A stretch of DNA of 16,847 nt from Candidatus Undinarchaeales archaeon (lineage in GTDB: Archaea > SpSt-1190 > JASMDC01): the NCBI GenBank assembly GCA_030753015.1, contig JASMDC010000055.1, positions 1 through 16,847 of the forward strand, read 5' to 3'. The notes beneath the pieces are model-generated. The model was not told where the DNA came from, did not search any database, and worked only from the letters and a program-made list of their open reading frames with translations. Positions 1,183 to 15,942 of the stretch are shown one piece after another. The position numbers and the translations under genes are program-made. How positions within the stretch are numbered: position 1 is the first letter of the stretch; each line of letters begins with the position of its first letter.

Positions 1183-1262
1183 CGATAATAAAAACCTGAC
1201 GTGAACAACGTGCTAGAACGTGTAACTATTTTTCGTACGCGTTCGAAAAAAGGCTTTATAGC
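1183..1262. promoter_or_regulatory. Divergent archaeal promoter region with operator
   Basis: + strand: A-rich BRE (GAAAAAAGG) then TTTATA at 1255-1260, about 23 nt before GTG 1283. - strand: TTTTTATTAT at 1185-1194. Near-perfect 22-bp palindrome TTTTTCGTACGCGTTCGAAAAA at 1229-1250. ACGTG repeated at 1199, 1208 and 1218. Confidence 0.7.
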
Positions 1263-1282
1263 GCCGCGAGAAGATAGGCCCC

Positions 1283-1585
1283 GTGGTGAACGAACTGCAC
1301 TGGACCGATCCCCGGAGGGCCTTCGCGCGCTACAATGCGTACTTGCATGAGCTCGGGTTCCCCTTCAGAGGGCGGGACCTGTACATCTTCTACGGGCTCT
1401 CGGCTTGGGCTGGGATCAACATCGCCCTCCTCTTCGACGTTGTCGTGGGCCGCTCGCCCAGCGGCAGCGAGATGGCGGTGACGTCCCTGGCTGCGTACTC
1501 CCTCATCATGATGGTGACCCTTCCGTTCCTGAAGGCGGAGGGCTTCATCGGCGTGGGATCACAGGGCGAGAGCGTGGACGTGTAG
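1283..1585 (+). CDS. Small membrane protein with two predicted TM helices, 100 aa
   Basis: Hydrophobic stretches LYIFYGLSAWAGINIALLFDVVV and MAVTSLAAYSLIMMVTLPFL. The GTG start is positioned for leaderless translation from TATA 1255. Confidence 0.65.
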   Translation: MVNELHWTDPRRAFARYNAYLHELGFPFRGRDLYIFYGLSAWAGINIALLFDVVVGRSPSGSEMAVTSLAAYSLIMMVTLPFLKAEGFIGVGSQGESVDV

Positions 1586-1594
1586 GTGATCGAC

Positions 1595-1729
1595 ATGTTA
1601 GTAGTAACATCTACGAAGGCGGCGTGGTGGCCTCGGTCCGTCCCACCGCCACCGGTACCGAGTGGACCCCGTGAGCCGGACGAGCTGCCCGAGCGCTGGG
1701 AGGAAGAGGACGACGACGGAACGGAGTGA
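1595..1729 (+). CDS. Small Pro-rich/acidic protein, 44 aa (absent from ORF track)
   Basis: Archaeal SD AGGTGAT (1584-1590) before ATG 1595. Translates MLVVTSTKAAWWPRSVPPPPVPSGPREPDELPERWEEEDDDGTE and fills the gap between its neighbours. Confidence 0.5.
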   Translation: MLVVTSTKAAWWPRSVPPPPVPSGPREPDELPERWEEEDDDGTE

Positions 1730-1736
1730 TGTGACC

Positions 1737-1928
1737 ATGACGAGCATGAACGATATCAAGGGAGCGATCAAGGAGGCGGCCCGCAAGGTCGCAAAGGAGA
1801 ACGGCTGGACGTACCGCGAGTCGGCGGAGATGGTCAAGGACCTGACCCTCGGGATGATCGAGGGCACCGTAGAGATCCTCACCCAACCTGAAGTGCGGGA
1901 CGGTTGCTGCGGCCCCGACTGCGACTAG
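1737..1928 (+). CDS. Small helical protein with Cys-rich tail, 63 aa
   Basis: SD GGAGTGA before ATG 1737. MTSMNDIKGAIKEAARKVAKENGWTYRESAEMVKDL...DGCCGPDCD, with GC3-biased codons. Confidence 0.6.
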   Translation: MTSMNDIKGAIKEAARKVAKENGWTYRESAEMVKDLTLGMIEGTVEILTQPEVRDGCCGPDCD

Positions 1929-1950
1929 CGACGAAGGGGGACGATCCGTA

Positions 1951-2337
1951 ATGAGCAAAGATGTTGACGAGAAGGGGATGCTAGAGTTGCTCGGTGACCT
2001 GGTCGATGCCTCCTTAGGGATAGTCTGGGCGTCCCTCGAGCTGGCTTACGCGTTCGTCGTGGTCTTTGCGAACGTGACCGGCCTCCTCCCCGGGACCGCG
2101 GATACGACCGAGACATTCTCCCTCGGAAAGAAGGCCACTGTCCACGTCAACGACTTCAGCCCGGACAGGGTCGCGGACATGGCCCCCGTGCTCTGCGAGG
2201 TCGAGGACCAGCTCAAACGCCTCTGCAGCAGCGGCCCTGTCGACGTCACGGTCAGCATAGAGGTCGACGGCGGAGACGTCCCCGTCTGCATCGAGGACTC
2301 TGTCCCAAGCGATTCTTGGTCCCTGTCGCACACGTGA
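1951..2337 (+). CDS. Hypothetical protein, 128 aa, possible N-terminal hydrophobic helix
   Basis: GAAGGGGG RBS and coding-like codon bias. No family recognised. Confidence 0.55.
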   Translation: MSKDVDEKGMLELLGDLVDASLGIVWASLELAYAFVVVFANVTGLLPGTADTTETFSLGKKATVHVNDFSPDRVADMAPVLCEVEDQLKRLCSSGPVDVTVSIEVDGGDVPVCIEDSVPSDSWSLSHT

Positions 2338-2416
2338 TGCTCCCCTGGGGGGAAGGAAACCCGGGGGCCGATGACGGCCGTGGGGACGCCACCGCCCCCC
2401 GGCCCGAGGCCCCCGA

Positions 2417-2475
2417 TGTTCACGTCCCGGCACGTGAAACGAACCGTGTTTCACGTGCTGATAATGCTTTTATTG
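2417..2475 (+). promoter_or_regulatory. Operator inverted repeat and TATA box of the Ubl operon
   Basis: Perfect 11-bp inverted repeat GCACGTGAAAC (2430-2440)-N7-GTTTCACGTGC (2448-2458). Extra half-site TGTTCACGTC (2417-2426). TATA-like TTTTATT at 2468-2474. Confidence 0.7.
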
Positions 2476-2549
2476 CGGCCGAGGCCAACTCCTCATTGAG
2501 CGACGAGGGAGACCCCGTCGCCCCAGATAAAGTGACTCTGGTGAACACT

Positions 2550-2873
2550 ATGGTACAGAACGACGAAAAGACCGTGAAGAAACCGGTCACCGAGCAGAAG
2601 ATGGAAGACGCGCCCACCGCTCCCACGCCGACGGCGACGGATGGCGGCGTCACCCTGCGCGTTGGCGTAGGGCTCTTCCACAAGCCCCGTAACGTGAGCC
2701 TCTCCGGCTCCGAGACCGTGAACGACGTGCGCCATCTCTTAGGTGTGCCCGTCGAGTACGTGGCCGTGGTCCCCGGCAGGGGAGTCGCCGAGGGCGGCTG
2801 CGCTGTGTGCGAGGCAGTCGACGAGGGCGAGGAACTCCTCTTCGTGCCCCTGACCGCCGGCGGATCCCGGTAG
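2550..2873 (+). CDS. Ubiquitin-like (beta-grasp) modifier precursor ending ...LTAGG-SR, 107 aa
   Basis: SD GGTGA at 2540-2544. VTLRVGVG..RNVSLSGSETVNDVRHLLGVP...EELLFVPLTAGG aligns by eye with ubiquitin (TLEVEPSDTIENVK..GIP...TLHLVLRLRGG). Di-Gly at 2859-2864 is followed by Ser-Arg-stop. Sits next to E2 and JAMM genes, with E1 in the same operon. Confidence 0.82.
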   Translation: MVQNDEKTVKKPVTEQKMEDAPTAPTPTATDGGVTLRVGVGLFHKPRNVSLSGSETVNDVRHLLGVPVEYVAVVPGRGVAEGGCAVCEAVDEGEELLFVPLTAGGSR

Positions 2874-2882
2874 GCGGTTGCC

Positions 2883-3803
2883 GTGTCGTCCGTCGCCGAG
2901 GTGAACCTGCGCGAGCGCGTAGCGTCCGCGGTGGAGGCTGCGCTCTCGGCGTTCGCACGGTTGCACGACCGGCCGCTCACCCTGCTCCCCCTCTCGAACG
3001 GGGAGCTGGCGGCACTTGACGCGGAGATCGACGGCGACGCGCAGGTCGGTCCACGTCAGCAGGTGCGGACGCTGGTGCGCAAGGCGGCCGGGAGACCGAT
3101 CATGCTGGTGGCTGGCGCAGGTCCGGTCAAGACCTATACAATGGCCAGGATGGCCCGCGATGCCTACGACCTCTCGCTGTGCATGGCGACGTTCATCGTG
3201 CGCGAGCTCGAGCACCTTCCAGAGGTGCTGGAGGCCGCCCGTCTTGAGAAGCGGTTGGTCGCAGCCAACAACCTGGGCAGGCTGGGATTCCGTGTACAGG
3301 ACGAGCGCGGGTCTCGATTCTCGGGAAAGGTGGAGGTGCGCAAGGGGCCGATCAAGGGGAGCTATAGGATGGATGTGCTCCTCCCGCCCCGGTTCCCCGA
3401 CACCCAGCCGTTCTTCCGGCTGGTCGACGTGCCGCGCCACCCCAACGTCTACGACAGCGGCGACGTGTGCCTGGGCCACTTCGTGTGGAACCCGGCGCTG
3501 GACATCACCGTCCTGGTGGAGCAGGTGCGTCACGTGCTGGAGAACCCGAATTACGAGGACGGATTGCACCGGGAGGGCGACGAAGAACAGGAGGAGCTCT
3601 CGGAGAACAGCGTACGTCTGCTGTCCCTGGTCGCTGAGCTTGTCAGTGAGCGGAAGCCCAGTGTGACCTACGCCGAGATACGGCAGGTGGCCTCGGAGCG
3701 CGGAGGGATGAGCCACGACGAGATCGATGGCGCGATACAAGAGCTCATCACCAGGGGCGAGATCTTCGAGCCCCAAGCTGGAAGGTACCAGCCGCTCATC
3801 TGA
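2883..3803 (+). CDS. Ubiquitin-conjugating enzyme E2 (UBC fold) with N-terminal extension and C-terminal winged-helix domain, 306 aa
   Basis: YRMDVLLPPRFPDTQP...HPNVYDSGDVCLGHFVWNPALDITVLVEQVRHVLENPN matches eukaryotic UBC (FPTDYPFKPP..HPNINSNGSICLDIL..WSPALTI..LLCDPN). HPN at 3438-3446, Cys at 3468-3470. Tail EIDGAIQELITRGEIFEPQAGRYQ resembles the archaeal MCM C-terminal wH. Confidence 0.9.
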   Translation: MSSVAEVNLRERVASAVEAALSAFARLHDRPLTLLPLSNGELAALDAEIDGDAQVGPRQQVRTLVRKAAGRPIMLVAGAGPVKTYTMARMARDAYDLSLCMATFIVRELEHLPEVLEAARLEKRLVAANNLGRLGFRVQDERGSRFSGKVEVRKGPIKGSYRMDVLLPPRFPDTQPFFRLVDVPRHPNVYDSGDVCLGHFVWNPALDITVLVEQVRHVLENPNYEDGLHREGDEEQEELSENSVRLLSLVAELVSERKPSVTYAEIRQVASERGGMSHDEIDGAIQELITRGEIFEPQAGRYQPLI

Positions 3804-3819
3804 ACAGGTAGTGATCCAT

Positions 3820-4290
3820 ATGGGAGAGCTGAAAGAGGGAATTGGCGAGGATAAGGGAGTGGGGATCCCCCACGTCCTCATAGATAGGGACATCGAGCGC
3901 GATATGTATGCCGCTGCCATGGCGCAGTACATCATCAACGGCGGGGAGGCGTCGGGACTCTTGGTAGGCAGGGTTGAGGCGGACGTCGTTACCGTCACGT
4001 CAGCACCCCATATGCCCGGCGAGAGCGAGCACTCCTTCTGTCGCATCCCCCCCCTCACGGCCGCCGAGCTGGCGGCCTCGCTGCCCGACGACGTCGCCGT
4101 GGTCGGCTGGTGGCACTCCCACCCCAGGTTCGCGCGAACGCCGAGCGCCACGGACCTCGCCACCATCGACTCCATGGTGCGGTCGTCACCTCTCGTGGTG
4201 TCGGTAATCGTCGACCCACTGGTCTGCGCAATGGACGTCTACATCACCGACGACAGCGGGACATGGCACGTGGATGGAGGGTACGGGTGA
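3820..4290 (+). CDS. JAMM/MPN+ (JAB) metallo-isopeptidase, Rpn11-like, 156 aa
   Basis: EASGLLVG ... VVGWWHSHPRFARTPSATD ... VVSVIVDP is a complete E-xn-H-S-H-x7-S-x2-D JAMM motif. GGTAGTGA RBS before ATG 3820. Confidence 0.92.
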   Translation: MGELKEGIGEDKGVGIPHVLIDRDIERDMYAAAMAQYIINGGEASGLLVGRVEADVVTVTSAPHMPGESEHSFCRIPPLTAAELAASLPDDVAVVGWWHSHPRFARTPSATDLATIDSMVRSSPLVVSVIVDPLVCAMDVYITDDSGTWHVDGGYG

Positions 4291-6953
4291 TGCCGAGTCT
4301 CGCTAGGCTGGCGCTTGACCGGGAACGTTCGCGGGCGCGGTCCAATAACAGGGGCGGGACGGAGCCATCTCTTGGTAGTCTGCTCGCGTTAGTTAGCAAT
4401 GAAATGGAACAAATCCCGGAGATCGAGCTCGGGGGGGAGGAGGTTGCGGACACGTCGCGCGAGCTCGCAGAGGCGCTCGGCCGCAACGATTATCGAGAAG
4501 CTATCATATTCCTAGTGATCCTGGTAAGGATGACCCGATCGATCATCGAGAGAAGTGGAGCGCATGAGATGCAACCGATAAACGGCTCGGTGGTCCGCTC
4601 GCTCCTCCGGTCCACTGAAGAGCTCGAGTGGATCCACGGCGATGGTGACGATCTCCCAGGAAAGCTCGTGTTCCGCCTGGACGAGGGTCTAGTAACGGGA
4701 ACCGAGCGTGCATTGGAGAACGAGGACCCCCGCGTGGTGGAGTACTGGAGGGCCTCCGGCCGCTGGCTCGAAGAGAGCGCTAATCCCGACCACGGGGAGA
4801 GGCCGAGGTGGCCGGAGGGATCCGACCCGACCGTGCCGCGACCTGGGCTCCCGCTCTCCTTCCTGTGCACGGCCCACGCGTGGGCCTTGGCGGCCATCCT
4901 GCGCTCCTGCTCTACACTCCGACGGGGGCGGTACCTCGTCTACCTGCAACTGCTCCACCCTCTCGCTGTGTCGCTCGACCTGCTGCGCCAGCTCGATGAC
5001 GAGCACGACAGGTACCTGACAGTGAGGGATGGCGAGGATGAGGATGGCATCTTCTTCCACGAGGCGCTCGACGTGCTCGCCCGTGAACGGGCCTCTTTGG
5101 AGAGAGTTGTGGCAGACCACCTCTCCTCGCTCTACGGCCTCGAGAGGCTAGAGTTCATCCCGCCCCTCTGGCTTGAGGGGCAAGTGAACATCGAGAGGCC
5201 GCGCCCCGCTGGCAGGGAACGTAATGTCGGGCATCCGGTGACCGAATCGGCCAGCCGCATTACGGTCTTTCTGGCGAGCCGGGACCTTGCAGGCTCGGTG
5301 GAATCGCTTGCCCGGGCCTGCGCTGCTACGACGGACGCGCTCGACCCGGTCCACGGCGTCCCGTGGCACAGGAGGACCCACTTGGCGGACAGGTTGAGGT
5401 CGACCGCGTGCGACATCGCCTGGGGGATGAACCGCATCCAGAACAGCGGGGGAGTGGTCGCTGACATGGCGACGATAACCCGCTTCCTCAGGCACGTGGA
5501 GGGAAGGACGGACAACAGCTATGGATCGCCCATCGCGTGGACCCTCGACGCCTTCAGGATGCTGGCCGAAGAACACTTGCTGGCGATGGCCGACGCTCTC
5601 GATCCGCCTTCGGCCGGCGAGGTGGGAGTCCGACCCGACCATACCCAGTTCGGCGGCATCCCCTACCAGTTCTCGTCGGGTGTAGCACTCTCAAGAGCGC
5701 GCGAGCACCTCCGCCGGTATGACGGTCCACTTTCGTCGGAAGGTCTCGGCGGGGACTGGGGCGAGGAAGAGGGTGCTCGGCTTCTAGCCGCTCTCCGGGA
5801 GCTGGTCCGGTCGCGTGATGGGCTGGCCGCCGCCATCGACATGATGATCGCGCGGGAGAACGAGGACATGACACATCTCACCGACGGCCACGTGCTCTGG
5901 GGGGACGGGCTGGCGGCCGTGCCGCGCCTGGAGCCGGTGTCCGAGGAAACACACCGTGATGAGGGGGGGACGCTCGAACGGACCGTCCGGAACGCCGTCG
6001 CGCTCGAAGACGGCACGGGCATGCTCCACTATGTGTACCCACGCTTCATCGACCGGGCGCTGGACATCATCGAGGAGCGCGGGAACGATATCCGCCCCCT
6101 CGGGACGAGCGGCTCTGGTGAGCTGGTGATCGAGATCAACGGCCGGGTGGTGACCGCTCACCGCAACCTCGACTACTACACATGCTCGTGCGAGGACTCG
6201 CACTACCGTTCAGCAGAGGACCGACACTTGTGCAAGCACGTGGCGGTCGCGGCCATCCTGTTCGGTGACTTCGAGCTGCGAGAGGATCTGCACCTGCAGC
6301 GGGCAGAGGCCCTCTCCACACAGTTCTCTGACATCAGGGAGCGGGTGCTCGCCGAGCGCGGTGGCCGTGCCGATCATCTCAGGCAGACCGTACTGCGACA
6401 GCTGGTGGGGACGACGGACAGGAACGGAATTGAACTCCGTCAACGTCGGGCTGAGCTGCATGATCGCATCCGGAACCTTGAGGTACAGCGTATGGAGACG
6501 CCCCTCCACAACCAAGAACTACGCCGGGAGCTCCGGCAGGAGCTGGAGCGATACAACCTCGAGCTCGAGTCCATCAACAGACCGCTGGAAGGGGCGGGGC
6601 CGGCCAGGCGCAGGCCCGGCGAGGTGCCAAGGAGGGGGGGACCGGACGTTCTGGAGGGGCAGAGGGAGATTCTCAGGACCAGGATCATGGACATCCAAGC
6701 GAATATCGAAGAGATCAACGCGCGGATAAGGGGAGAGGAACCCGAGGTTCTCGAAGGTAACGAGCGCCGGGAACTCATTCGCCAGCAGGCGTCCCTTGAG
6801 CAAGAGCTAGCACGGTCAAGGCACCGGTTGGAAGACGTCCAGCACCAGCTCCAGCGGTCCGAGGCCCACGGTCGCTCCGGACCGGTCACGCGAGCAGTAG
6901 TGCGGGCGCCACCAGGGATGTGGGAGTGCGCGCCACCGGGGGAGGGGAGCTGA
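4290..6953 (+). CDS. Large protein: uncharacterised helical domain, SWIM zinc finger, coiled coil and WECxPP tail, 887 aa
   Basis: TGATG overlap with the JAMM stop. SWIM YTCSCEDSHYRSAEDRHLCKH (6183-6239). Heptad-rich C-terminus. Only 2 Lys. Confidence 0.8.
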   Translation: MPSLARLALDRERSRARSNNRGGTEPSLGSLLALVSNEMEQIPEIELGGEEVADTSRELAEALGRNDYREAIIFLVILVRMTRSIIERSGAHEMQPINGSVVRSLLRSTEELEWIHGDGDDLPGKLVFRLDEGLVTGTERALENEDPRVVEYWRASGRWLEESANPDHGERPRWPEGSDPTVPRPGLPLSFLCTAHAWALAAILRSCSTLRRGRYLVYLQLLHPLAVSLDLLRQLDDEHDRYLTVRDGEDEDGIFFHEALDVLARERASLERVVADHLSSLYGLERLEFIPPLWLEGQVNIERPRPAGRERNVGHPVTESASRITVFLASRDLAGSVESLARACAATTDALDPVHGVPWHRRTHLADRLRSTACDIAWGMNRIQNSGGVVADMATITRFLRHVEGRTDNSYGSPIAWTLDAFRMLAEEHLLAMADALDPPSAGEVGVRPDHTQFGGIPYQFSSGVALSRAREHLRRYDGPLSSEGLGGDWGEEEGARLLAALRELVRSRDGLAAAIDMMIARENEDMTHLTDGHVLWGDGLAAVPRLEPVSEETHRDEGGTLERTVRNAVALEDGTGMLHYVYPRFIDRALDIIEERGNDIRPLGTSGSGELVIEINGRVVTAHRNLDYYTCSCEDSHYRSAEDRHLCKHVAVAAILFGDFELREDLHLQRAEALSTQFSDIRERVLAERGGRADHLRQTVLRQLVGTTDRNGIELRQRRAELHDRIRNLEVQRMETPLHNQELRRELRQELERYNLELESINRPLEGAGPARRRPGEVPRRGGPDVLEGQREILRTRIMDIQANIEEINARIRGEEPEVLEGNERRELIRQQASLEQELARSRHRLEDVQHQLQRSEAHGRSGPVTRAVVRAPPGMWECAPPGEGS

Positions 6954-9613
6954 TGCCCGATATATTCGACCGAGCAGTCCAGGAGCTCGAGAGCACCAGG
7001 AATGATGGACATGACTCCAACGAGCGCGCGCTGCAGCTCGCCAACATCGTGCACCGGCACGCCGAGGCGGAGTTCGGTGTCGACGGGCTCGAGCGCTCTC
7101 TTGACCCGCTGGCGACGTGCCTGCACGGCCGCGCGCACGCGGGAGAAACGTACGCCTGTCTCGTGCTACTCGCCGCCGCGTGCGACATCGCTGCGGACGT
7201 TGTGAACAGTACACGAGATGGTGGAGGGAACGTCCGTCAGCAACACACCCGGCCTCTACTCCAGATCGCGGGCGATCTCCTCTTCAATGATGATAGCACC
7301 CTCATCAACCAGCGGGAGGTCGTGCCCGGCTCCTTGGGCGAGGTCGTCATGGTGCCTGCCCGTGCAGGGACGCTGACACGTCCGCACGATGAAGACCGAG
7401 AGGGCCGATCTCATGACGACCTGCTCGCCTGGTGCGCGGTCCACCTCTGGGCCATCGGGCGAATCCTCGACGAGTGCTCGGGCGACGGCTTGAGCGCTGC
7501 CGGTATCGCGCGATTTGCCACGGTCGTACGGGCGCTGCGCACATTGGACCACGCGCAGTTCATGCACGCCGAGATCGAGGAGTACCCATGGGAAAGGGAT
7601 GCCTATGTGGAAGCTGCGCTCGCAGCTCTATTCAACAAGCGCAGCCGCCTGACGGGTCGGCTCGCCCAGTCCCTGCGCGACCGGCTCGGGCTCGAGCCGC
7701 CGCTGTTCATACGGCCGGGCGCACAGTTCATTCCAGGGAGGTTGTCGGTGGAGGACTGGGACCGGACCACCGTTAGGGAGGCTCTGGAGGTGGCCCGCCA
7801 CCTGGATGCTGGTGAGCTCAACGACGCACTCCGGTCCCTGGCACGGGCCATCCACGCCGGACTTAACGCGGACGACATCGGTCAGGATGAGCGGAGCACG
7901 ACCGCCCGTCGACTGCGGGCGATCTCCTGCGGCATCGCTTGGGGGATGGCGGCCCCGGTGGCGTACGACGACATGAACCGCGCCATGGGTGAGCTGGTCA
8001 GCTTCACGCGGGAGTGCTTCCAGATCAACCTTCCTGAAACGCGCGAACCGGGCCTCCCGCGGGCCGTCCGGGCGCACGTCGAGGCGCATCTGGAGGCGCT
8101 GGCGGTCGCGATCGATCCACCTCACGCCATTACATCCCGGGACGCGCCGCGGGCGTCCATCTGGCGCGGGCAGTCCGATCTGTTCCGTGTACCGCGGGAC
8201 CTGAGCGCCGACCACATCATCTCAAGTGTCCACGACCGGCTCCGTGTGCACAATCCGAGTTCCGACAACGTCGACCGGGTGAGCGACGAGCGTCGGGACG
8301 CCGAGGAGGAGCTCGCGAGGGCCCGGGGTCAGCTGCTCTCCTTGCTGGAGGAGATGGAGGACCAGGCAGACATCATGCTCGAGGACGACGATGCCATCTG
8401 GCCATTGCGCGGGATCGTCATCCCCTTAATCCCGGGCGCCACCGGTGAACTGCAAGGGGAAGGGGTGCCGTTCTTCGAGATGGAGTACCGGCGAGACGGC
8501 ACTCCCCTGAACATAGACATAGATTCCGAAACCGGCCAGCTGATCCGCACCACGGGGACCGCTTCACGCGGGAACATAATCCCGGACATCGCCACCCGCT
8601 ACCTGGAGGCCGCCGAGGAGCACGGGAGGGCCAGGGACGAGGCCGCGCGGCATGGCCTGCGGCGGTCGCGGGAGGAGCGGTTCTCCCGACAGGAGGCGGT
8701 CCCCGGATGGGACCAGGGCAGGTTACGGCGGGCCGTGGTCGTGGTCGCCGGAGTGGGCGGCCTGGGCGCGGCGGTGGTGGACCAGCTGGCACGGATGGGC
8801 GTCGGGACGGTCCGCGTCGTCGACCACGACCGGGTGGAGGACTCCAACATCTCGCGCCAGTGCCTCTACATCGCCGACGACGTCGGGAGCCTCAAGGTGG
8901 ACGCTGCCGCGCGACGGGTGTCGGACCTCGACGGGCCCACCCGCGTGGTCCCGCGACCCGCGTACTTATGCGAACGCAACGCTCTCATGCTGGTGGCCGG
9001 CGCCGACGTGGTGTTCGACTGCCTGGACAGCGAGAAGAGCAAGCACCTGCTCAACCACGCGTGCGCGCGGGCGGGGGTACCGCTGGTCCACGGGGGATGC
9101 ACGGGATTCATCGGGCAGGCGATGGCCGTGGTGCCGGGACGGACGGCGTGCCTGGCGTGCCGGGAGCTTACCTTCTCGGTGGCGGACACGGCCAGCTGCA
9201 CCCGCGACGAGACCCTGCCCATCGTGGCCCCCACGGCCCAGCTGGTGGCGTCCCTGCAGGTGGATCTGGCCCTGCACGTGCTCATGGGGACGGGCGACGT
9301 GCCGTCGGGGCTGCTCCTGTACGATGGCCGCGGGCCGGGCGTGCGGTCCGTGCCGGTGGAGCGCAGGGACGACTGCCCTGTGTGCGGAGGTAACGGGACG
9401 ACGGACGACGATGTGCGGACGGCGCTCTCACTCCAGTCTCAAGATTCCCTGCTCCAGATCGCCGGGGCCGTGGGGATGGAGCACGCCGACGGGATGGACA
9501 CCAGCAACCTCGTCGAAGCGCTCGTCGACGTGTTCTCGGCCCTCCCTGACGGCAGGCACCGTGCGCTACGACTGGCGTCGGGCGTGCAGTTCATCGAGGA
9601 GGCGATGTCGTGA
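6953..9613 (+). CDS. Ubl-activating enzyme E1 (ThiF/MoeB/UBA domain) fused to a ~575-aa N-terminal helical domain, 886 aa
   Basis: TGATG coupling. RFSRQ (8678), GVGGLG (8750), VVDHDRVEDSNISRQ, DVGSLK, DCLDS, Zn pairs CLAC and CPVC, and a crossover-loop Cys in ASCTRD (9197). Confidence 0.9.
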   Translation: MPDIFDRAVQELESTRNDGHDSNERALQLANIVHRHAEAEFGVDGLERSLDPLATCLHGRAHAGETYACLVLLAAACDIAADVVNSTRDGGGNVRQQHTRPLLQIAGDLLFNDDSTLINQREVVPGSLGEVVMVPARAGTLTRPHDEDREGRSHDDLLAWCAVHLWAIGRILDECSGDGLSAAGIARFATVVRALRTLDHAQFMHAEIEEYPWERDAYVEAALAALFNKRSRLTGRLAQSLRDRLGLEPPLFIRPGAQFIPGRLSVEDWDRTTVREALEVARHLDAGELNDALRSLARAIHAGLNADDIGQDERSTTARRLRAISCGIAWGMAAPVAYDDMNRAMGELVSFTRECFQINLPETREPGLPRAVRAHVEAHLEALAVAIDPPHAITSRDAPRASIWRGQSDLFRVPRDLSADHIISSVHDRLRVHNPSSDNVDRVSDERRDAEEELARARGQLLSLLEEMEDQADIMLEDDDAIWPLRGIVIPLIPGATGELQGEGVPFFEMEYRRDGTPLNIDIDSETGQLIRTTGTASRGNIIPDIATRYLEAAEEHGRARDEAARHGLRRSREERFSRQEAVPGWDQGRLRRAVVVVAGVGGLGAAVVDQLARMGVGTVRVVDHDRVEDSNISRQCLYIADDVGSLKVDAAARRVSDLDGPTRVVPRPAYLCERNALMLVAGADVVFDCLDSEKSKHLLNHACARAGVPLVHGGCTGFIGQAMAVVPGRTACLACRELTFSVADTASCTRDETLPIVAPTAQLVASLQVDLALHVLMGTGDVPSGLLLYDGRGPGVRSVPVERRDDCPVCGGNGTTDDDVRTALSLQSQDSLLQIAGAVGMEHADGMDTSNLVEALVDVFSALPDGRHRALRLASGVQFIEEAMS

Positions 9614-10479
9614 GCACCGGATTCCCTGGAGCAGCGCCCCGTGTGTACGGGCGACGAATGGGTCGGGGGCCGACGGTCGAGGTCTACGAGGAGGGATTCG
9701 TCGTCGAGCGCTGCCCGACTTGTGGCAGGCACCTCAAGGATATGACCGACTGGCCGAATGTAAGGGTTACCGGGATCGAGGACGCGGTGGACGACGTGCG
9801 CCGCGAGTCCCTTTCGCGGCTGGTGCGGCGCGGGCCCTTCCTGCTCCAGTGGGGGACCGTGCCGGGATGCGCGAGCGGAGCGATGCAGCGGTGCCTGGTC
9901 GACGAGCTGGGCCTGAACTGGGCGGCCGGGGCCGAGGTGCACCCGGTCGGCGACAGGTCGGTCCTCGTCATTAGAGGTCGGCGGTGGTGCATGGTCACCC
10001 TCGATCAGGACGAGCTCGTCGCGCACCTCGAGGTGGATGATGGGAGGAGGCTCGAGCTGGGCGTCGCTCGACTCGGCGACCGTGTCGACCTCCATATCCC
10101 TCTCGACGACGACGATGTCGATGATAGGACCGCTCCTTACCTCTGGGCCCGGAACCCCGCTGCGGTGCACTCCGCGAGGGCTGCTGTAGCCCATCTCAAG
10201 GGATTCGTCGGCACGGACGCGGATCCGGACCGGATAGCTGAGCTGTGGCGCGCCGAGGGATTCAGCGGACCATGGGCCCGTTACCACGAGTTCAGGGGTG
10301 TCCGGATCGTGCAGGTCGGCGGTTACGCGCTCTACCTCGACGACAACGTCCTTACGCTTGTCGACGCGGACAGGATCGGCGGTGGGCTCGACGGTCCTCC
10401 GCCGGTGACGTTCCGTCTGGCGCGGGTGCTGTACGAGGGGATGCTGCACGAAGAGCGGAGCGGTGGCGGCAGTGGCTGA
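9610..10479 (+). CDS. Hypothetical protein with CxxC knuckle and central beta-rich domain, 289 aa
   Basis: GTGA overlap with the E1 stop and GGAGG RBS. ERCPTCGRH. Coding-like codon bias. Only 2 Lys. Confidence 0.7.
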   Translation: MSTGFPGAAPRVYGRRMGRGPTVEVYEEGFVVERCPTCGRHLKDMTDWPNVRVTGIEDAVDDVRRESLSRLVRRGPFLLQWGTVPGCASGAMQRCLVDELGLNWAAGAEVHPVGDRSVLVIRGRRWCMVTLDQDELVAHLEVDDGRRLELGVARLGDRVDLHIPLDDDDVDDRTAPYLWARNPAAVHSARAAVAHLKGFVGTDADPDRIAELWRAEGFSGPWARYHEFRGVRIVQVGGYALYLDDNVLTLVDADRIGGGLDGPPPVTFRLARVLYEGMLHEERSGGGSG

Positions 10480-12286
10480 GGACGGAACGATCCTTCTCGC
10501 GTGCGAACGCGCGCACCACCAGGCCGTCGCCGGGAAGAGGGATGACATGATGGAGTGCCTCCGGTTCGCCGGTGATAGTATCTCTAACATCATGCGCACC
10601 CGGTCTTTCTCGCGACGACCGCGTGCCCGTTCCATGGATTCATTGCAGTTGGACGAGCGAATTGCGTCCTTGTCAGCCCACCTCATCACTGGTGGCACAG
10701 GTCCCGCCCCGGGCCCACGAGTGATCGCAGTACCCCTTGACACGGGGCGGACGTGCCCTGACCTCAGGGACGGACCATTAGACACACAACTACATCTGTG
10801 CTGCCCCCCGCGCACGTTGTGCGCGGCGGAATTATGGACGCTCTCCCGCGTCTTTCACTTGGCCATCTGCGGCGCAGGTGACGTGCATGAGCGCATAGTC
10901 ATGTCCGACCTCGTACGCATAGGGAGAGCGCTCACAAGCCTGACCGATCCCCTGTTCCCTTTTGGGGGGGTCGCCTCCGGGTTGGGAGACGACCTCTTTA
11001 TGTACCCTCTTGATATGCTCTCCTTTAACCGGACTTCATCGGATGACGGTGCGGATGCAAGGCACGCAGTCGTTCGGGAAAGGCTCGACGATGTCGCGCA
11101 GGTCGAGCGCCACCATATCGTCGACGTTGCCCTGGACGCGGCCCTCGGCCTCCAGTGCGGCAGGACCGAGGACATGGCGCGCGGCCTCACCTCCCTAGAG
11201 GAAATGTGCCGGATAACCGCGTCGGTCCTGGAGGGCGGGACGGAAGAACCCGGTGAGAGGGACGTCACGCTCCTCCGGTTCATATCAGCCACCCTTGCAC
11301 TGGAGGACGTCATCGCGGCGACTGAGACGGATATCTTCTTCGATACCATGGAGCTCGGAAGGTCCGTGCTCACGTCAAGTTATATCGGGGCGTACTACGG
11401 CGGGATGCCGGACCCCGTACAGTTCAGGCTGGCGTGCGAGCACCATATCGAGGCATGCGCGAGCGCGCTCGACACCAGAGCGGACCTATCGGGGGCAGTC
11501 TGGCAGGGCGTGGGTCAGTGGTATCAGCTCGGTCCCGACGAGGGGGTGGTCCTTCCGCTCCTGAACGCCCGGGAGCGACTCATGCGGTACAGGTCAGACT
11601 TCAGACCCCCGGAGGACGCTGTGGATCACGAGGTCACGTCAGCGTCCAGAGCCCTGTCGCGGCAGCGCGACCAGCTCCTTGACGTGCTGGACGCACGGAT
11701 CGCTGCTCTGACGGAGGGCGCTATGAGAACTGCAGGGCGTCGGTACGTATCGCTCTCGTATCCCGAAGGAATAGTCGCCGCCGCAGAGGGCGCAACGGTC
11801 GGGCCCGACGTACCGGGCGACCAGGTCTGCGCGACCGTTCGGAGCGGGGAACACCCTGAATGGGATGTGACCCGGTGGACGCTGGTACAGGCCCAGCACT
11901 TCATCAAGAAGCACGGGTATCTCATCGATCGCCTGGGTACCAGCCAAACGGGCGAGCCGGTGCTTGTCGTGGACTCGCACGTAGTGGCGCTGGGTCAGGA
12001 CAACCTGGATCGAGACCGCTACCGCCCCCTCTACGAGTGCTACTCATGCCGGGAGTTTCGTGAGCAGAACGGGACCCGACCCCGGCTCTGCAAGCACCTA
12101 ACGGCGGCGCTCATCATCATGGGCCGACTGGGTGAGCGCGAGGGTGTCGACCTCAGCCTGCTCGACCGGGCCCTCGCATTGATAAGGGAGGAGGTCGGGA
12201 TGACGGGCATCCGCGGGCGGTACCGCAGCAGCGCGTGCGCGGGCGACGGGGTATGGGAGTGTCGGGCGCCAAGGGAGGGGGTATGA
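10463..12286 (+). CDS. Paralog of 4290-6953: helical domain, SWIM-like zinc finger and WEC tail, ~607 aa (start may be GTG 10472)
   Basis: YECYSCREFREQNGTRPRLCKH (12038-12097). LGTSQTGEPV motif. Shared helical-domain motifs. Ends GVWECRAPREGV. Confidence 0.78.
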   Translation: MAAVAEDGTILLACERAHHQAVAGKRDDMMECLRFAGDSISNIMRTRSFSRRPRARSMDSLQLDERIASLSAHLITGGTGPAPGPRVIAVPLDTGRTCPDLRDGPLDTQLHLCCPPRTLCAAELWTLSRVFHLAICGAGDVHERIVMSDLVRIGRALTSLTDPLFPFGGVASGLGDDLFMYPLDMLSFNRTSSDDGADARHAVVRERLDDVAQVERHHIVDVALDAALGLQCGRTEDMARGLTSLEEMCRITASVLEGGTEEPGERDVTLLRFISATLALEDVIAATETDIFFDTMELGRSVLTSSYIGAYYGGMPDPVQFRLACEHHIEACASALDTRADLSGAVWQGVGQWYQLGPDEGVVLPLLNARERLMRYRSDFRPPEDAVDHEVTSASRALSRQRDQLLDVLDARIAALTEGAMRTAGRRYVSLSYPEGIVAAAEGATVGPDVPGDQVCATVRSGEHPEWDVTRWTLVQAQHFIKKHGYLIDRLGTSQTGEPVLVVDSHVVALGQDNLDRDRYRPLYECYSCREFREQNGTRPRLCKHLTAALIIMGRLGEREGVDLSLLDRALALIREEVGMTGIRGRYRSSACAGDGVWECRAPREGV

Positions 12287-13032
12287 TGCCTGGCGGGAGC
12301 GGGGAGGGCGCCAGCTCCTGGAGCGACCGGCAGAGGGAGCTCGCCGAGTACGCCGGTATAATCCTGATGGAGGAGGGTGAGACCTTCGAGCAGGCGGAGA
12401 GGCGCCAGGAGAGGGAGATGCGTGAGCGCGGGGCCAGGCGCACAGGAGTTACCGGCGAGCAGACCGGCCAGGCTCCTGGGCAGCGACCGCGCGAGGTGTC
12501 CGGGGCGTCTTCGGACAGCGCGTCCCGGGGCGGGGCGCCGGCGGCGGACCTCGAGGGCGCGAGGACCGGCGGGCGGGACCGACCGGCGTGGACCACGTGG
12601 CGGGATCCGGGAGGCGTCGAGTGGCGGATCACGCTGGACAAGCTCAACAGGGCCGCCAACATCCTCCTGACCGAGTTCGACCTCAGGCGCATGGGCACCA
12701 GCGCGGTCGGAGAGATCGTGCTCGAGATCGCGTCCCGCGTCGTCACGGTGAACCTGGAGCGCCGCTACTGCGTGTGCTCATGCGAGGACTACCGCTCAAG
12801 CAGCGAGGGGGACCACCACCTGTGCGAGCACGTAGTGGCCGCGCTCTTCATCATGGGGGAGCTGGGGGAGCGCGAGGGCATCGATCTCGGCCTCTTCTCC
12901 CCGCTCGTCCCCGCGATCAGGAACTGGCTCCTTTTCGATGGGAACCCTGATACCCTTGCGGAGGACGGGAAAGGGCGGAGCGAGGGTTGGGAATGTCGGC
13001 CACCGGGGGATGGGAGGGAGTGCGACGGGTGA
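12283..13032 (+). CDS. SWIM zinc-finger protein with low-complexity N-terminus and WEC tail, 249 aa
   Basis: ATGA overlap and GGAGGGGG RBS. MGTSAVGEIV...YCVCSCEDYRSSSEGDHHLCEHVVAAL. Ends EGWECRPPGDGRECDG. Confidence 0.78.
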   Translation: MMPGGSGEGASSWSDRQRELAEYAGIILMEEGETFEQAERRQEREMRERGARRTGVTGEQTGQAPGQRPREVSGASSDSASRGGAPAADLEGARTGGRDRPAWTTWRDPGGVEWRITLDKLNRAANILLTEFDLRRMGTSAVGEIVLEIASRVVTVNLERRYCVCSCEDYRSSSEGDHHLCEHVVAALFIMGELGEREGIDLGLFSPLVPAIRNWLLFDGNPDTLAEDGKGRSEGWECRPPGDGRECDG

Positions 13033-13130
13033 GGGTGACAGCGGGGCCGACAAGCTGGTGGACCCATGGCGGTCGCTGGCATGCTCGTGCTGCGGCACGG
13101 GTGATGATGAAGGAGGTGTTCCGATCATGA
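13029..13130 (+). CDS. Possible 33-aa coupling peptide
   Basis: GTGA overlap with the upstream stop and ATGA overlap with the downstream start. MRVTAGPTSWWTHGGRWHARAAARVMMKEVFRS. Confidence 0.35.
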   Translation: MRVTAGPTSWWTHGGRWHARAAARVMMKEVFRS

Positions 13131-13351
13131 CGATGTACACGGTGAAACGGATGAAGGGAGGATGGTCTGTCCACGACCACGTCGAGGACGAGGACTTCGA
13201 GATACCGGACGGCGCGGTCATCACCTACGAGGTGCGGACGCGGCTCACCGGTCCGGAAGAGATGATGGAGGTCGTCGGATCCAAGACTGGCAAGCTGGCA
13301 CTGGTGGCGGCGGTGTGCATGATGCCGTGCCCGGAGGAGGTGGCGGGATGA
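13127..13351 (+). CDS. Small beta-rich hypothetical protein, 74 aa
   Basis: Strong SD AGGAGGTG before ATG 13127. MTMYTVKRMKGGWSVHDHVEDEDFEIPDG...CMMPCPEEVAG. Confidence 0.65.
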   Translation: MTMYTVKRMKGGWSVHDHVEDEDFEIPDGAVITYEVRTRLTGPEEMMEVVGSKTGKLALVAAVCMMPCPEEVAG

Positions 13352-13476
13352 CGCTGTGCAGGATGCGCCAGGCCGGGATCGAGCCCGTCTCGTATCATGT
13401 CGGCCCGGTCCTGCTCGTCTACCATTTCATGCTGAAGCGAGCGCTGAGGGAGATGAGACGTGTGAAGGGGAGGTGA
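13348..13476 (+). CDS. Small hypothetical protein, 42 aa
   Basis: SD GGAGGAGGTGG and ATGA overlap. MTLCRMRQAGIEPVSYHVGPVLLVYHFMLKRALREMRRVKGR. Confidence 0.5.
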   Translation: MTLCRMRQAGIEPVSYHVGPVLLVYHFMLKRALREMRRVKGR

Positions 13477-13491
13477 TGGAGGAGAGATCGT

Positions 13492-13689
13492 GTGCTGAAC
13501 GCCTTCGTCAGGCTGGTGGTGGATATACTCCCGCTACCGCTCGGCCTGACGGCGGGGGTGCCGGGCATCTCGTCCGGCACGAGCCTCGAGGGTAAAGCGC
13601 ACCCGGCGGGCGGAGGGCTCGCGCGGGGCGGGGAGAGAGGCGGTGAGCCGTCCATGGCGGAAAGACGGAAAAAGGTGACACCCATATGA
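13492..13689 (+). CDS. Possible small hypothetical protein, 65 aa (alternative: 13476-13595, 39 aa)
   Basis: GGAGGAG RBS before GTG, and its stop overlaps the nuclease ATG. The reading frame is ambiguous and the sequence is low-complexity. Confidence 0.3.
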   Translation: MLNAFVRLVVDILPLPLGLTAGVPGISSGTSLEGKAHPAGGGLARGGERGGEPSMAERRKKVTPI

Positions 13690-14597
13690 CACCGACAGAA
13701 CAAGGGGAAAGATCCATGCCCGAACTCGAGGACTGGTTCCATAGGTACAACAAGTGGTCGTTCAGCAAGCACAGGCTCTGGAACGAGTGCAGGCGACAGT
13801 ACTGGTACCGGTACATCGGCACGGCACTGCGGACCTCTGATGAGGTGGACGTTGCGCGACTGAAGGCCTTGCGCGGGCTGACACCCCGCGCCGCCCTCGA
13901 GGGTATGCTGGTCCACGATGCGATCGAGAAGCAGATGGACCGCTTCGCCAGAGGGATGACCGTCAATGAGGAGCTGGCGGCCAAGCACCTCGTCAGCGAG
14001 ATGGCCAAGTTCACGGGAACACCCCGGGATAAGATCATCGAGTTCCACAACGGCGTCGAGCAGCCCGAGAACTACTTCGAGCGGGTGCAAGACGGGGGCA
14101 TCGGGAAGCTCGGGACGTTCTTCGCCAAGATATGGCCACGCATCGAGGGCTCGGAGCACCTGAGGCACGAGAAGTTCGACGAGGTCACGGTGGGCGACGT
14201 GGTCGCGACCGTGAAGGTCGATCTCGCATGCCGGATGGCCGACGACACGATCGTCGTCTACGACTGGAAGACAGGGCGCGAGGATCCCGCGTACGAGAGC
14301 GAACTCCAGCTCGGCGCCTACGTGCTGTGGGCGAGCCGGTATTACAGCGCAGCACCGGAGAAGGTGCGGAGCGAGCTTGTGTACCTGGCGACCGGGAACG
14401 TACGCAGGCACGAGTTCTCCGCCGAGCAGCTCGACAGGGTAGGGCTGCTGATCGTGTCGGACTTCAAGAGGAGGAACAGCTCGTACGAGATGGGCGCGTT
14501 CTCCCCCGACCCCGGTCCGTGGAAGTGCCAGGGGTGCCGGTTCGCGACTGTGTGCCCCCACTCGCTGCACGGGGAGGCGCCGGGAGGAGGTCCCTGA
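13686..14597 (+). CDS. PD-(D/E)XK nuclease, RecB/AddB/Cas4-like, with 4-Cys Fe-S staple, 303 aa
   Basis: WSFSKHRLWNECRRQYWY, GMLVHDAIE, KVDL...YDWKTG, QLGAY, and C-terminal CQGCRFATVCP. SD AGGTGA. Confidence 0.88.
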   Translation: MTPTEQGERSMPELEDWFHRYNKWSFSKHRLWNECRRQYWYRYIGTALRTSDEVDVARLKALRGLTPRAALEGMLVHDAIEKQMDRFARGMTVNEELAAKHLVSEMAKFTGTPRDKIIEFHNGVEQPENYFERVQDGGIGKLGTFFAKIWPRIEGSEHLRHEKFDEVTVGDVVATVKVDLACRMADDTIVVYDWKTGREDPAYESELQLGAYVLWASRYYSAAPEKVRSELVYLATGNVRRHEFSAEQLDRVGLLIVSDFKRRNSSYEMGAFSPDPGPWKCQGCRFATVCPHSLHGEAPGGGP

Positions 14598-14654
14598 TCC
14601 ACCTGCTGTCACGAATTAAAAGACTAGATGCATGGATCGATCCGAGGGAAGGAC

Positions 14655-14852
14655 ATGCGCACCAGGATCACCACCATAGGCCAGAGCGAGAACGCCATCA
14701 CCCGCCCCCCGTGGGCGACGTGCAAGCTCGACGGCTTCGTACCGGACCGAGCGGTGCTCATGGATCCTGGCAGCAGGGGCGTGGACCGGGATGCCCTTAA
14801 GGCCTCGGTAGCGCCCTCGTGCACGTGCGGAAGGATCCCAGCGCCAACGTGA
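14655..14852 (+). pseudogene. Short ORF or possible truncated CARF-like gene fragment, 65 aa
   Basis: GAGGGAAGG RBS. MRTRITTIGQSENAITRPPWA...FVPDRAVLM loosely resembles CARF motif I (iTTvGtSp.av...lwa...PD.v.Ll), then loses coding character. Confidence 0.3.
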
Positions 14853-14877
14853 ACGTCACCCTGTTACACGTACGCGG

Positions 14878-14892
14878 AATTCTTTTATATCG
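14878..14892 (+). promoter_or_regulatory. TATA box for the ABC exporter unit
   Basis: TTTTATAT at 14883-14890 in otherwise GC-rich DNA, about 22 nt before ATG 14912. Confidence 0.55.
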
Positions 14893-14911
14893 CCCCTGAC
14901 TCCTCTTTTCC

Positions 14912-15067
14912 ATGGACGCAGACGACACGGTAGGCGGCCACATCGAGCAGGCGATCATCGGCGACGACGCCGTGGGGATGGTGATGCCGCTGGCCGTCGC
15001 GGGCGACGAGCTGGAGCGGCTCGCCGGGCCCACCCGGGAAAAAAACACTCTAGAGCTGATAGCGTGA
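14912..15067 (+). CDS. Small acidic protein or leader ORF, 51 aa (absent from ORF track)
   Basis: Leaderless position relative to the TATA box. MDADDTVGGHIEQAIIGDDAVGMVMPLAVAGDELERLAGPTREKNTLELIA. Its stop overlaps the ABC GTG (GTGA). Confidence 0.45.
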   Translation: MDADDTVGGHIEQAIIGDDAVGMVMPLAVAGDELERLAGPTREKNTLELIA

Positions 15068-15942
15068 CATTGAGGATCGAGGGCCTGACGAAGAGCTTCG
15101 ACAGCAAGACAGTCCTCAACGACATCTCCTTCTCCGTGGACAGGGGGGAGGTGTTCGGCCTCCTCGGCCCCAATGGTGCGGGAAAGACCACCATGATCCT
15201 GATCATCCTTGACATCCTCGGACCCGACTCGGGTCGGATTTCCATCTTCGGAGACCGTCTCTCTGAAGCGATCAAGGACCGGATCGGATACCTGCCCGAG
15301 GAGAGCGACCTGTACCCGAACGTGACCGTCCGCGATTGCATCAGGTATTTCTCCCGGTTGAAAGGGTTCGATGCCACCGACGAACGGATCGATCACTGGC
15401 TTCAGAGGATGAAGCTCGGGGAGTACGGGGACAAGAGCGTGGAAGAACTGAGCAAGGGCATGCAGAGATTGCTGCACATCATCATCTCGTTCATACACGA
15501 GCCGGACTTCCTCGTCCTGGACGAACCGTTCTCCGGGCTGGATCCGGTGAACAAGGAGCTGGTCAAGGACATCGTACTCGATCTGAAATCCAGAGGCATG
15601 ACCATCATCATGAGCACCCATCAGATGGACGAGGTCGAGAAGATGTGTGACCGGATCCTCATGATCAACAAGGGCGACCAGGTACTCTACGGGAACCTGA
15701 ACGAGATCAAGGGCCGGCACGGATCATCCATCGTCGTTGCATACGAAGGGGAGCTCCCTCCCCTGGAAGACATCGAGCGGGTGAACGATTACGGTAACTT
15801 CGCGGAGTTGATCATCGGGAGGGGGGCGGACCCGCAGGCCATCCTGAGAGAACTGGTGGAGAGGGTGACTATACGCAAGTTCGAGGTCAAGACCCCTTCG
15901 CTGGACGAGATCTTTATCGAGGTGGTCGGGAATGAGGAATAA
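15064..15942 (+). CDS. ABC-2 type exporter ATP-binding subunit (NatA/YhaQ-like), 292 aa
   Basis: Walker A GPNGAGKTT, Q-loop GYLPEE, signature LSKGMQR, Walker B LVLDEPFSGLD, H-loop MSTH, and C-terminal PSLDEIFIEVVG. Confidence 0.95.
   Translation: MTLRIEGLTKSFDSKTVLNDISFSVDRGEVFGLLGPNGAGKTTMILIILDILGPDSGRISIFGDRLSEAIKDRIGYLPEESDLYPNVTVRDCIRYFSRLKGFDATDERIDHWLQRMKLGEYGDKSVEELSKGMQRLLHIIISFIHEPDFLVLDEPFSGLDPVNKELVKDIVLDLKSRGMTIIMSTHQMDEVEKMCDRILMINKGDQVLYGNLNEIKGRHGSSIVVAYEGELPPLEDIERVNDYGNFAELIIGRGADPQAILRELVERVTIRKFEVKTPSLDEIFIEVVGNEE

Follow-up and report, generated by a model that had tools for sequence, protein, structure and literature searches.

Five consecutive lysine-poor proteins in a predicted ubiquitin-like conjugation operon of an undinarchaeal genome

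Why should five consecutive genes of an archaeon encode proteins from which lysine has almost disappeared? The question is raised by a stretch of 16,847 nucleotides from Candidatus Undinarchaeales archaeon (assembly GCA_030753015.1, contig JASMDC010000055.1, positions 1 to 16,847; hereafter the window). Five open reading frames (ORFs) on its forward strand, spanning positions 4290-13032, together encode 14-15 lysines and 344 arginines in approximately 2,920-3,005 amino acids (aa), depending on the start codons. They follow, in this order, genes for a putative ubiquitin-like protein (Ubl), a ubiquitin-conjugating enzyme (E2) of the HPN type, and a JAB peptidase. Four of the five proteins are mosaics of a helical domain, a SWIM module and a C-terminal W-E-C-x-P/A-P tail, and one of them carries a ThiF-type Ubl-activating enzyme (E1). 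From their sequences, the cluster is best explained as a rare archaeal ubiquitin-like conjugation operon of a very rare variant. We confirm that the lysine depletion is a real and robust compositional anomaly and infer that it is best read as self-protection of the machinery from auto-conjugation, a reading to which we assign a probability of about 0.55.

Lysine content of the five proteins

The depletion extends over the whole run. The first protein (4290-6953; 887 aa) contains 111 arginines and two lysines, K125 and K649, separated by 523 lysine-free residues. The E1 fusion (6920-9613; 897 aa) has four lysines, 91 arginines and a longest lysine-free run of 418; started from an ATG at 6953, it yields an 886-aa version with the length of database entry P0008. 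It is followed by a 289-aa protein (9610-10479; two lysines, 33 arginines, longest lysine-free run 153), a 607-aa protein (10463-12286; four lysines, 62 arginines, lysine-free run 456), and a 265-aa protein (12235-13032; three lysines, 32 arginines, longest lysine-free run 122) that shortens to 249 aa and two lysines when started from an internal methionine. Translation reproduced the lysine counts reported for the five proteins in an earlier note on this sequence, that for the last ORF holding from the internal methionine, and the run of about 520 residues described there is the one measured here at 523. Its statement that flanking genes are normal also stands: there are 21 lysines in 253 aa of an HFX_2341/Csa3-like regulator (415-1176, reverse strand) and 15 in 303 aa of a Cas4-like PD-(D/E)XK nuclease (13686-14597, forward strand), which both served as composition controls, and 16 in 292 aa of an ABC ATPase.

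Published definitions of a lysine desert, as given in the available part of PMC13696103, require a lysine-free run of at least 150 aa or of at least 50% of protein length. By run length, four of the five proteins are deserts (523, 418, 153 and 456 residues) and the 265-aa protein, with 122, is not. By proportion, the 887-aa (523/887, 59%), 607-aa (456/607, 75%) and 289-aa (153/289, 53%) proteins are deserts, while the E1 fusion (418/897, 47%) and the 265-aa protein (46%) fall narrowly short. The 265-aa protein is thus lysine-poor although it is a desert by neither definition.

Rarity was assessed within the genome to which the window belongs (3.85 Mb in 117 contigs, GC 0.603; hereafter G000). 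Gene content marks it as archaeal, since it encodes ribosomal protein S24e, whose family had matches in none but the four archaeal control genomes. A codon-score caller predicted 2,623 ORFs with a minimum length of 150 aa, which cover 86% of this genome, and ORFs without a hydrophobic segment were counted as soluble. Lysine and arginine account for 4.0% and 6.4% of residues genome-wide. Among 2,270 sets of five adjacent genes, the set at 4290-13032 ranks first for both low lysine fraction (0.50%) and low K/(K+R) (0.042); the next-lowest sets are clusters of membrane proteins with 28-40 transmembrane-like segments, and this one alone is made of soluble proteins. When gene order was shuffled, a set as lysine-poor as 0.50% arose in 9 of 5,000 trials. 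The two longest lysine-free runs in 1,524 soluble ORFs both lie here: 523 residues in the 887-aa protein, then 456 in the 607-aa protein. Lysine contents of 0.7% or less are not rare when membrane proteins are counted (103 of 2,623 ORFs; 49 of 512 at total GC 0.64-0.71). Such contents occur in 11 of 1,024 soluble ORFs of at least 250 aa, three of the five proteins being among these. With the five excluded, they are found in just 3 of the 210 soluble ORFs of this length matched for total GC (0.64-0.71). The eight genes of the same 20,370-bp contig that lie outside the operon encode 107 lysines in 2,214 aa (4.8%).

A compositional or historical origin would need no selection: the genes could have come from a donor that was lysine-poor, GC-rich or salt-adapted, with module duplication spreading one composition over four of them. 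In line with this, the five genes have a total GC of 64-70%, versus 60% for the genome, and lysine content correlates negatively with GC across the genome (r = -0.44). However, GC at the third codon position (GC3) is ordinary in all five genes (genome percentiles 0.38-0.93). The additional GC is confined to codon positions 1 and 2 (80th-99th percentiles), which identifies amino-acid choice as its source rather than foreign mutational bias. Furthermore, compared with 645 soluble ORFs of 250 aa or more matched for GC3, lysine stands at 0.11 of the median, a 9-fold reduction that puts each of the five proteins at or under the 2nd percentile, whereas other residues with AT-rich codons are reduced only 1.3-1.8-fold (phenylalanine 0.60, tyrosine 0.56, isoleucine 0.75 and asparagine 0.78 of the median) and cysteine is not depleted. 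The proteome-wide comparison of lysine and K/(K+R) under GC control, which the earlier note had proposed as a check, finds low lysine to be rare among soluble genes matched for either GC3 or total GC, the opposite of what the note had named as refuting. The depletion is not a GC bias; it is specific to lysine and independent of GC at the third codon position.

Arginine takes the place of the missing lysine. It reaches 11.5% of residues, 1.65 times the median of the GC3-matched soluble ORFs and within their 92nd-100th percentiles. The sum of lysine and arginine is barely raised (11.9% versus 10.4% genome-wide), so lysine has been exchanged for arginine rather than basicity gained. Of the 344 arginine codons, 70 (20.3%) are AGG, which a single transition separates from the lysine codon AAG; its share is 14.4% over the whole genome (binomial p = 0.003) and 11.5% in genes matched for total GC (p = 3e-6). 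This excess fits past replacement of lysine by arginine through AAG-to-AGG changes. A regression of lysine on the other residues explained little (R2 0.20), and none of the main arguments rests on it.

The high arginine content could also mean that arginine itself was needed, whether for arginine/glutamate coiled coils or for the binding of nucleic acids or partners by guanidinium groups. The 887-aa protein does contain an arginine/glutamate-rich helical stretch of approximately 200 aa. Against this stands the finding that depletion affects every domain type present (helical domain, SWIM module, ThiF fold, coiled coil and the 289-aa orphan), so that no single structural need explains it. Likewise, an exchange of one basic residue for another is not what a demand for additional basicity would produce.

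Lysine avoidance in relatives

Of 5.8 billion clustered proteins, seven are homologous to the 887-aa protein (43-92% identity), and all contain one to three lysines in 683-892 aa. When 1.84 billion representatives were searched with a profile, nine proteins in all were recovered. Among them are more distant, short proteins consisting of SWIM module, coiled coil and tail, with lysine/arginine counts of 1/50, 3/48 and 1/54. Six lysines in 432 aa were counted in a partial relative of the 607-aa protein. For the N-terminal domain of the E1 fusion, five homologues were found beyond the protein itself, with two to seven lysines in 524-890 aa. The homologues of both proteins are as lysine-poor as the window proteins, where ordinary contents would have spoken against the earlier note.

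Substitution patterns point in the same direction. Where an arginine of the 887-aa protein is changed in a homologue, lysine is the substitute in 1 of 204 cases; for the E1 fusion the figure is 2 of 83. In both families arginine is replaced by histidine, glutamine, glycine or leucine instead. As a lineage control, the proteins of G000 were aligned against 400 kb of the genome of a congener (G001, same genus). Lysine accounts for 124 of 500 arginine differences (25%) in the 123 orthologue pairs with 40% identity or more; 99 pairs of lower identity, set aside as likely paralogues, gave 176 of 1,391. Fisher tests return p = 1e-19 for the 887-aa family and 2e-7 for the E1 fusion, values that exaggerate the contrast because the homologue pairs share a reference and a phylogeny. 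The E2 family was rejected as a further control for arginine/lysine exchange, being too conserved (77-97% identity).

The few lysines that survive are not randomly placed. As the earlier note had pointed out, they include motif positions: the lysine of the SWIM C-K-H motif is invariant in 8 of 8 aligned sequences and that of the G-S-L-K motif of the E1 in 6 of 6. Two lysines in the adenylation domain of the E1 are invariant. Retention of lysine at constrained, invariant motif positions favors a role for selection, and the alignments together show lysine avoidance to be maintained in relatives.

These observations also bear on the compositional explanation. It can draw on the modules that four of the five genes have in common, on the similar, GC-rich-type composition of all the homologues, and on the accessory nature of the region, which is indicated by the lack of any counterpart of the window region in the congener genome. 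However, the modules have diverged to 25-36% identity and the homologues to 43%, yet lysine has not been regained (1/204 and 2/83, versus 25% in the lineage control). In view of this and of the three lysine-poor proteins among 210 GC-matched ones, we consider inherited composition very unlikely to suffice.

The family is sparsely distributed. Scans of 185,579 GTDB species genomes with the alignments of the 887-aa protein and of the E2 returned no relatives, and a metagenome-contig scan for related loci found none. Searches within the order (2 genomes) and the phylum (17 genomes) detected the 887-aa family only in the genome of the window itself. There was likewise no match to the E2 among plasmids or to the 887-aa protein among phages by tblastn.

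Components of the predicted operon

In the candidate Ubl precursor (2316-2873, forward strand; 185 aa), a long extension at the N-terminus precedes a domain of about 75 aa, which closes with GG and two further residues. It was assigned on the basis of its size, its C-terminal GG and its position directly upstream of the E2 gene. It has no match in Pfam, even at E <= 10, or among PDB sequences. A single-sequence AlphaFold2 (AF2) model with a predicted local distance difference test score (pLDDT) of 34 was too poor for a fold search. The protein Atlas yields a weak lead to ThiS (score 0.85), and complex prediction with the E1 core gave 0.01 and 0.16 against a mark of 0.32, which is uninformative either way. 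A pro-Ubl is plausible. Five of its six lysines cluster in 24 residues of the N-terminal extension (residues 72-95; 2529-2600). This cluster is the only lysine-rich patch of a lysine-poor operon and could be an acceptor or regulatory segment; its presence there also speaks against mutational bias as the cause of the depletion.

In the E2 (2883-3803, forward strand; 306 aa, 7 lysines, 30 arginines), about 150 aa at the N-terminus form a conserved domain. They are followed by a UBC core of eukaryotic character, in which the HPN motif and a catalytic cysteine are present, and by a C-terminal region that varies. The E2 matches Pfam UQ_con (E 5.8e-12; 45.8 bits versus a cut-off of 27). Its best solved relatives are UBE2N/Ubc13 (E 1e-7), and both HPN and the catalytic cysteine align with human UBE2N. 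Eight homologues share 77-97% identity, and K67, K123, K154 and K158 are invariant among them. The first 150 residues or so (2883-3350) are almost invariant in the eight homologues and match no Pfam family at E <= 10.

The JAB/JAMM peptidase (3727-4290, forward strand; 187 aa as the longest ORF) matches Pfam Prok-JAB over residues 58-159 (E 1.3e-10; 41.6 bits versus a cut-off of 25) and also the JAB models of PADLOC. Its lysines, at residues 5, 17, 36 and 43, all precede the JAB domain, which is lysine-free. The count of two lysines, both N-terminal, in the earlier note applies from the methionine at residue 32; the longest ORF has four. The E1 fusion combines a helical N-terminal domain with a single ThiF/MoeB-type adenylation domain at residues 597-821 (Pfam ThiF, E 1.3e-52; 178.8 bits versus a cut-off of 28.1), the core of which is closest to Escherichia coli ThiF and MoeB in the PDB (E 5e-28). 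The cluster thereby has three of the four parts that define a Ubl conjugation operon, namely a ThiF/MoeB-type E1, an E2 with UBC motifs and the active-site cysteine, and a JAB/JAMM peptidase; the fourth, a beta-grasp Ubl with a C-terminal glycine, would be supplied by the candidate precursor. No protein of the operon matches a RING family in Pfam (E <= 0.01).

Two groups of known operons invite comparison. As described in the available extract of PMC10557695, BilABCD operons (types I and II) resemble the cluster in the presence and order of Ubl (putative in the cluster), E2, JAB and E1, in residues after the C-terminal glycine of the Ubl that would be trimmed by the JAB peptidase, and in surroundings like a defence island. 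They differ in their E2, of CEHH type rather than UQ_con/HPN, and in their E1, which joins an inactive and an active adenylation domain instead of one ThiF domain and a helical domain. In addition, the present operon contains three SWIM proteins and one orphan, and its host is an archaeon. With a single ThiF stretch, a helical domain in the N-terminal 590 aa of the E1 and an E2 of UQ_con/HPN type, it falls outside the definition of type II BilABCD. A tblastn search of plasmids with the E1 core, tried as a route to Bil-type operons, was dropped when its matches proved to be ordinary ThiF/MoeB genes. The operons of Caldiarchaeum subterraneum and Asgard archaea, as far as the extract of PMC5654768 describes them, share with the cluster their archaeal origin, a eukaryote-like E2 and a JAB/Rpn11 peptidase for the pro-Ubl. 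The small RING-finger E3 typical of them was not found here; SWIM modules occur instead, and a novel N-terminal domain is joined to the ThiF/MoeB-like part of the E1.

The lysine-poor proteins themselves are built from few parts. A helical domain of about 350-400 aa that belongs to no known family is common to the 887-aa protein, the N-terminus of the E1 and the 607-aa protein (4850-5950, 7430-8420 and 10800-11900, forward strand) at 25-28% identity, so that the E1 is fused to the same helical scaffold as the SWIM proteins. The profile of the 887-aa family matches the 265-aa protein most strongly (E 5e-18), followed by the N-terminal region of the E1 (E 9.5e-11) and the 607-aa protein (E 1.8e-8). 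By BLASTP, the E1 fusion and the 887-aa protein are 25% identical over 442 columns (E 2e-13), the 607-aa protein matches a paralogous module at E 6e-8, and the 265-aa and 607-aa proteins are 36% identical (E 3e-18). Since four of the five proteins share paralogous modules, the five are not independent of each other.

Order of modules varies between the proteins. In the 887-aa protein, the helical domain is followed by a SWIM signature (C-x-C...C-K-H, residues 632-650), an arginine/glutamate coiled coil of about 200 aa and a W-E-C-x-P-P tail; its AF2 model from an eight-row alignment (pLDDT 47) is usable for secondary structure only. The 607-aa protein contains the helical domain, a SWIM-like module and a W-E-C-x-A-P tail, and the 265-aa protein a low-complexity N-terminus, a SWIM module and a W-E-C-x-P-P tail. 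Both the 887-aa and the 265-aa protein show the signature C-x-C-x(n)-C-x-H, of which the 607-aa protein has a variant. The sole Pfam match to SWIM is that of the 265-aa protein, at 17.1 bits under the cut-off of 19.6, and the 607-aa protein has no Pfam match at E <= 10. The 289-aa protein belongs to no known family: it has no match in Pfam (E <= 10), NCBIfam or PADLOC, and no usable lead in the Atlas.

The tail suggests another role for the SWIM proteins. At 6921-6950, 12254-12283 and 12988-13029, the 887-, 607- and 265-aa proteins end in W-E-C-x-P/A-P followed by glycine near the terminus. In a six-frame search of the whole genome, the motif occurs at these three C-termini, at that of no other protein, and once internally elsewhere. 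It is invariant in the 887-aa family and present in distant members (P0014-P0017, P0019 and P0020). The SWIM proteins may accordingly be reactive intermediates: the tail cysteine could accept the Ubl as a thioester, in the manner of the cysteine relay of HECT/RBR ligases, or the tail could be trimmed and adenylated, comparable to the CD-NTase tail in type II cyclic oligonucleotide-based antiphage signaling systems (CBASS). In either case, absence of lysine would spare the protein from its own mobile reactive tail. However, no such tail is present on the E1 fusion or the 289-aa protein, which are just as lysine-poor, and the operon already contains a conventional Ubl candidate with a C-terminal GG. 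In addition, the structural models are too poor to use. We consider such a role rather unlikely. It is with the same reserve that the lysine-free SWIM proteins may be imagined as a new cysteine-relay ligase or a C-terminally activated carrier in an archaeal E1-E2 system, the tail bearing the reactive bond and the desert, which takes in the whole protein, marking the reach of this swinging tail.

Proposed self-protection and its alternatives

Self-protection would operate as follows. The E1 and the three accessory SWIM proteins, built of shared modules, probably form one assembly. Any exposed lysine near a Ubl-adenylate or a Ubl~Cys thioester would be modified, and the machinery would thereby lose its activity or be tagged for degradation. 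Arginine would have taken over from lysine, and purifying selection would keep lysine absent everywhere but at a handful of constrained sites. Several features of the locus and the genome make these steps conceivable. Joint assembly with the E1 is plausible in view of the shared helical domain and would bring the proteins within reach of the activated Ubl. The HPN motif and catalytic cysteine of eukaryotic E2s are present in the operon E2, so lysine-directed chemistry would be available. The genome also encodes two 20S proteasome subunits, through which tagging could be costly. Transfer by the E2 to lysines, association of the five proteins with E1 and E2, and auto-conjugation as the selective agent are each presumed in this reading. 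The interpretation in the earlier note is supported in part: the rarity of the composition, its conservation in homologues, the invariant motif lysines and the canonical HPN E2 all agree with it, while its placement of the proteins near a charged E2~Ubl and its description of the system as promiscuous remain suggestions.

There are precedents for such protection, by analogy. In the available extract of PMC5654768, the E1 and E2 of Caldiarchaeum subterraneum become auto-ubiquitylated on lysines when their cascade is reconstituted in vitro. In eukaryotes, deserts guard the E3s San1, Slx5 and Hrd1 against autoubiquitylation, according to the part of PMC13696103 consulted. Eukaryotic deserts, which also include UBQLN2 and BAG6, resemble those described here in their long lysine-free stretches beside ubiquitin-transfer enzymes, in the use of arginine for lysine and in run length (523 aa here, compared with 521 aa in UBQLN2 and 950 aa in BAG6 in the same extract). 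They differ in that the present host is an archaeon, that the deserts cover folded enzyme domains including a ThiF E1 rather than mainly disordered regions, and that they extend over a whole operon run. Here, moreover, a protective effect is predicted from sequence. A prokaryotic parallel is the lysine avoidance proposed to shield proteins of Actinobacteria with a proteasome and prokaryotic ubiquitin-like protein (Pup) from a lysine-directed tag (PMC10665810 and PMC13696103, both in extract). That case, as these extracts present it, is genome-wide, confounded by GC and based on Pup and its ligase PafA, whereas the depletion described here is limited to one operon and is not explained by GC3. 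No match to a Pup ligase was found in the genome, which is 98.9% complete, and pupylation was rejected on this basis as the cause of lysine avoidance.

A number of observations weigh against self-protection. The E2, which is the expected thioester carrier, keeps seven lysines, of which four are invariant, and the putative Ubl keeps six; the assignment of the latter is itself putative, having been made with no family or fold match. Conjugation by the operon system, to lysine or otherwise, is predicted from gene content. Since four of the proteins are paralogous mosaics, the five in a row partly represent one ancestral composition, and the GC-rich-type composition of the homologues could reflect organism-wide lysine poverty in their hosts. 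A second E2-like protein of the genome, a triple UBC/UEV/RWD protein encoded on contig C26, has an ordinary lysine content (39 in 703 aa). In addition, unrelated soluble enzymes of the genome reach 0.5-1% lysine with no ubiquitin link, which means that low lysine alone is not diagnostic. These include a hydantoinase/oxoprolinase (1,224 aa, 10 lysines), two B12/radical SAM proteins, a thiamine pyrophosphate enzyme and an electron transfer flavoprotein alpha subunit (G000:C11:31763-35437; C26:4505-5920; C84:48022-49641; C58:18709-20346; C62:98310-99779).

Lysine may also have been avoided for reasons outside the Ubl chemistry of the operon itself. Besides the need for arginine considered above, some other lysine-directed process could be responsible, such as tagging by small archaeal modifier proteins (SAMPs), acylation, or a viral counter-defence enzyme. 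The genome has a second ThiF gene in addition to the proteasome subunits, which together could provide SAMP-type tagging by the host, and the neighbours of the operon have a defence-like character, among them the Cas4-like nuclease, a CARF/Csa3-like protein and an AAA_23 ATPase. On the other hand, the operon's E2 is the only lysine-directed enzyme that is demonstrably co-inherited with the five proteins. Taking both forms together, we regard an external cause as unlikely.

The wider surroundings are in keeping with an accessory region. Besides the Csa3-like regulator, the Cas4-like nuclease, the weakly matching CARF/Csa3-like protein and the AAA_23 ATPase, the neighbours of the operon include an ABC-2 transporter, and the neighbourhood resembles a defence island in its predicted gene content. 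The remainder of the contig (G000:C68:17330-20370; L040 2331-5371) encodes the weak CARF/Csa3-like protein, two proteins of no family and an AAA_23/SMC-like ATPase whose gene runs off the end of the contig. Elsewhere, the second E2-like locus (G000:C26:22096-28932, minus strand; L035 8096-14932) encodes the 703-aa protein, with three UQ_con/UEV/RWD-like stretches. Directly upstream of this gene are genes for proteins of 959 aa (9 lysines) and 691 aa (7 lysines) and for an archaeal LonB protease; the two lysine-poor proteins have no significant Pfam match.

Lysine deserts have so far been known from proteins of the eukaryotic ubiquitin system and proposed, with GC as a confounder, in pupylating Actinobacteria. 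A literature search, supplements aside, returned no paper on deserts in prokaryotic E1/E2 operons or in SWIM proteins encoded there; the desert literature that it found concerns eukaryotes, toxins, and Actinobacteria with their phages. In the undinarchaeal genome, the signature lies in one operon with a eukaryote-like E2, and controls from the same genome, the same contig and evolutionary comparison set it apart from GC bias. Should the SWIM proteins act through a reactive tail, deserts could be a sequence-only signature of prokaryotic proteins that handle activated Ubl. If self-protection is correct, avoidance of auto-conjugation would be an old constraint on E1/E2 machines, predating eukaryotes or independent of them, and the system would probably transfer to lysines with little sequence specificity. 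Lysine depletion could then serve to flag unannotated partners of prokaryotic Ubl systems, which in this operon would be four proteins or domains that belong to no known family.

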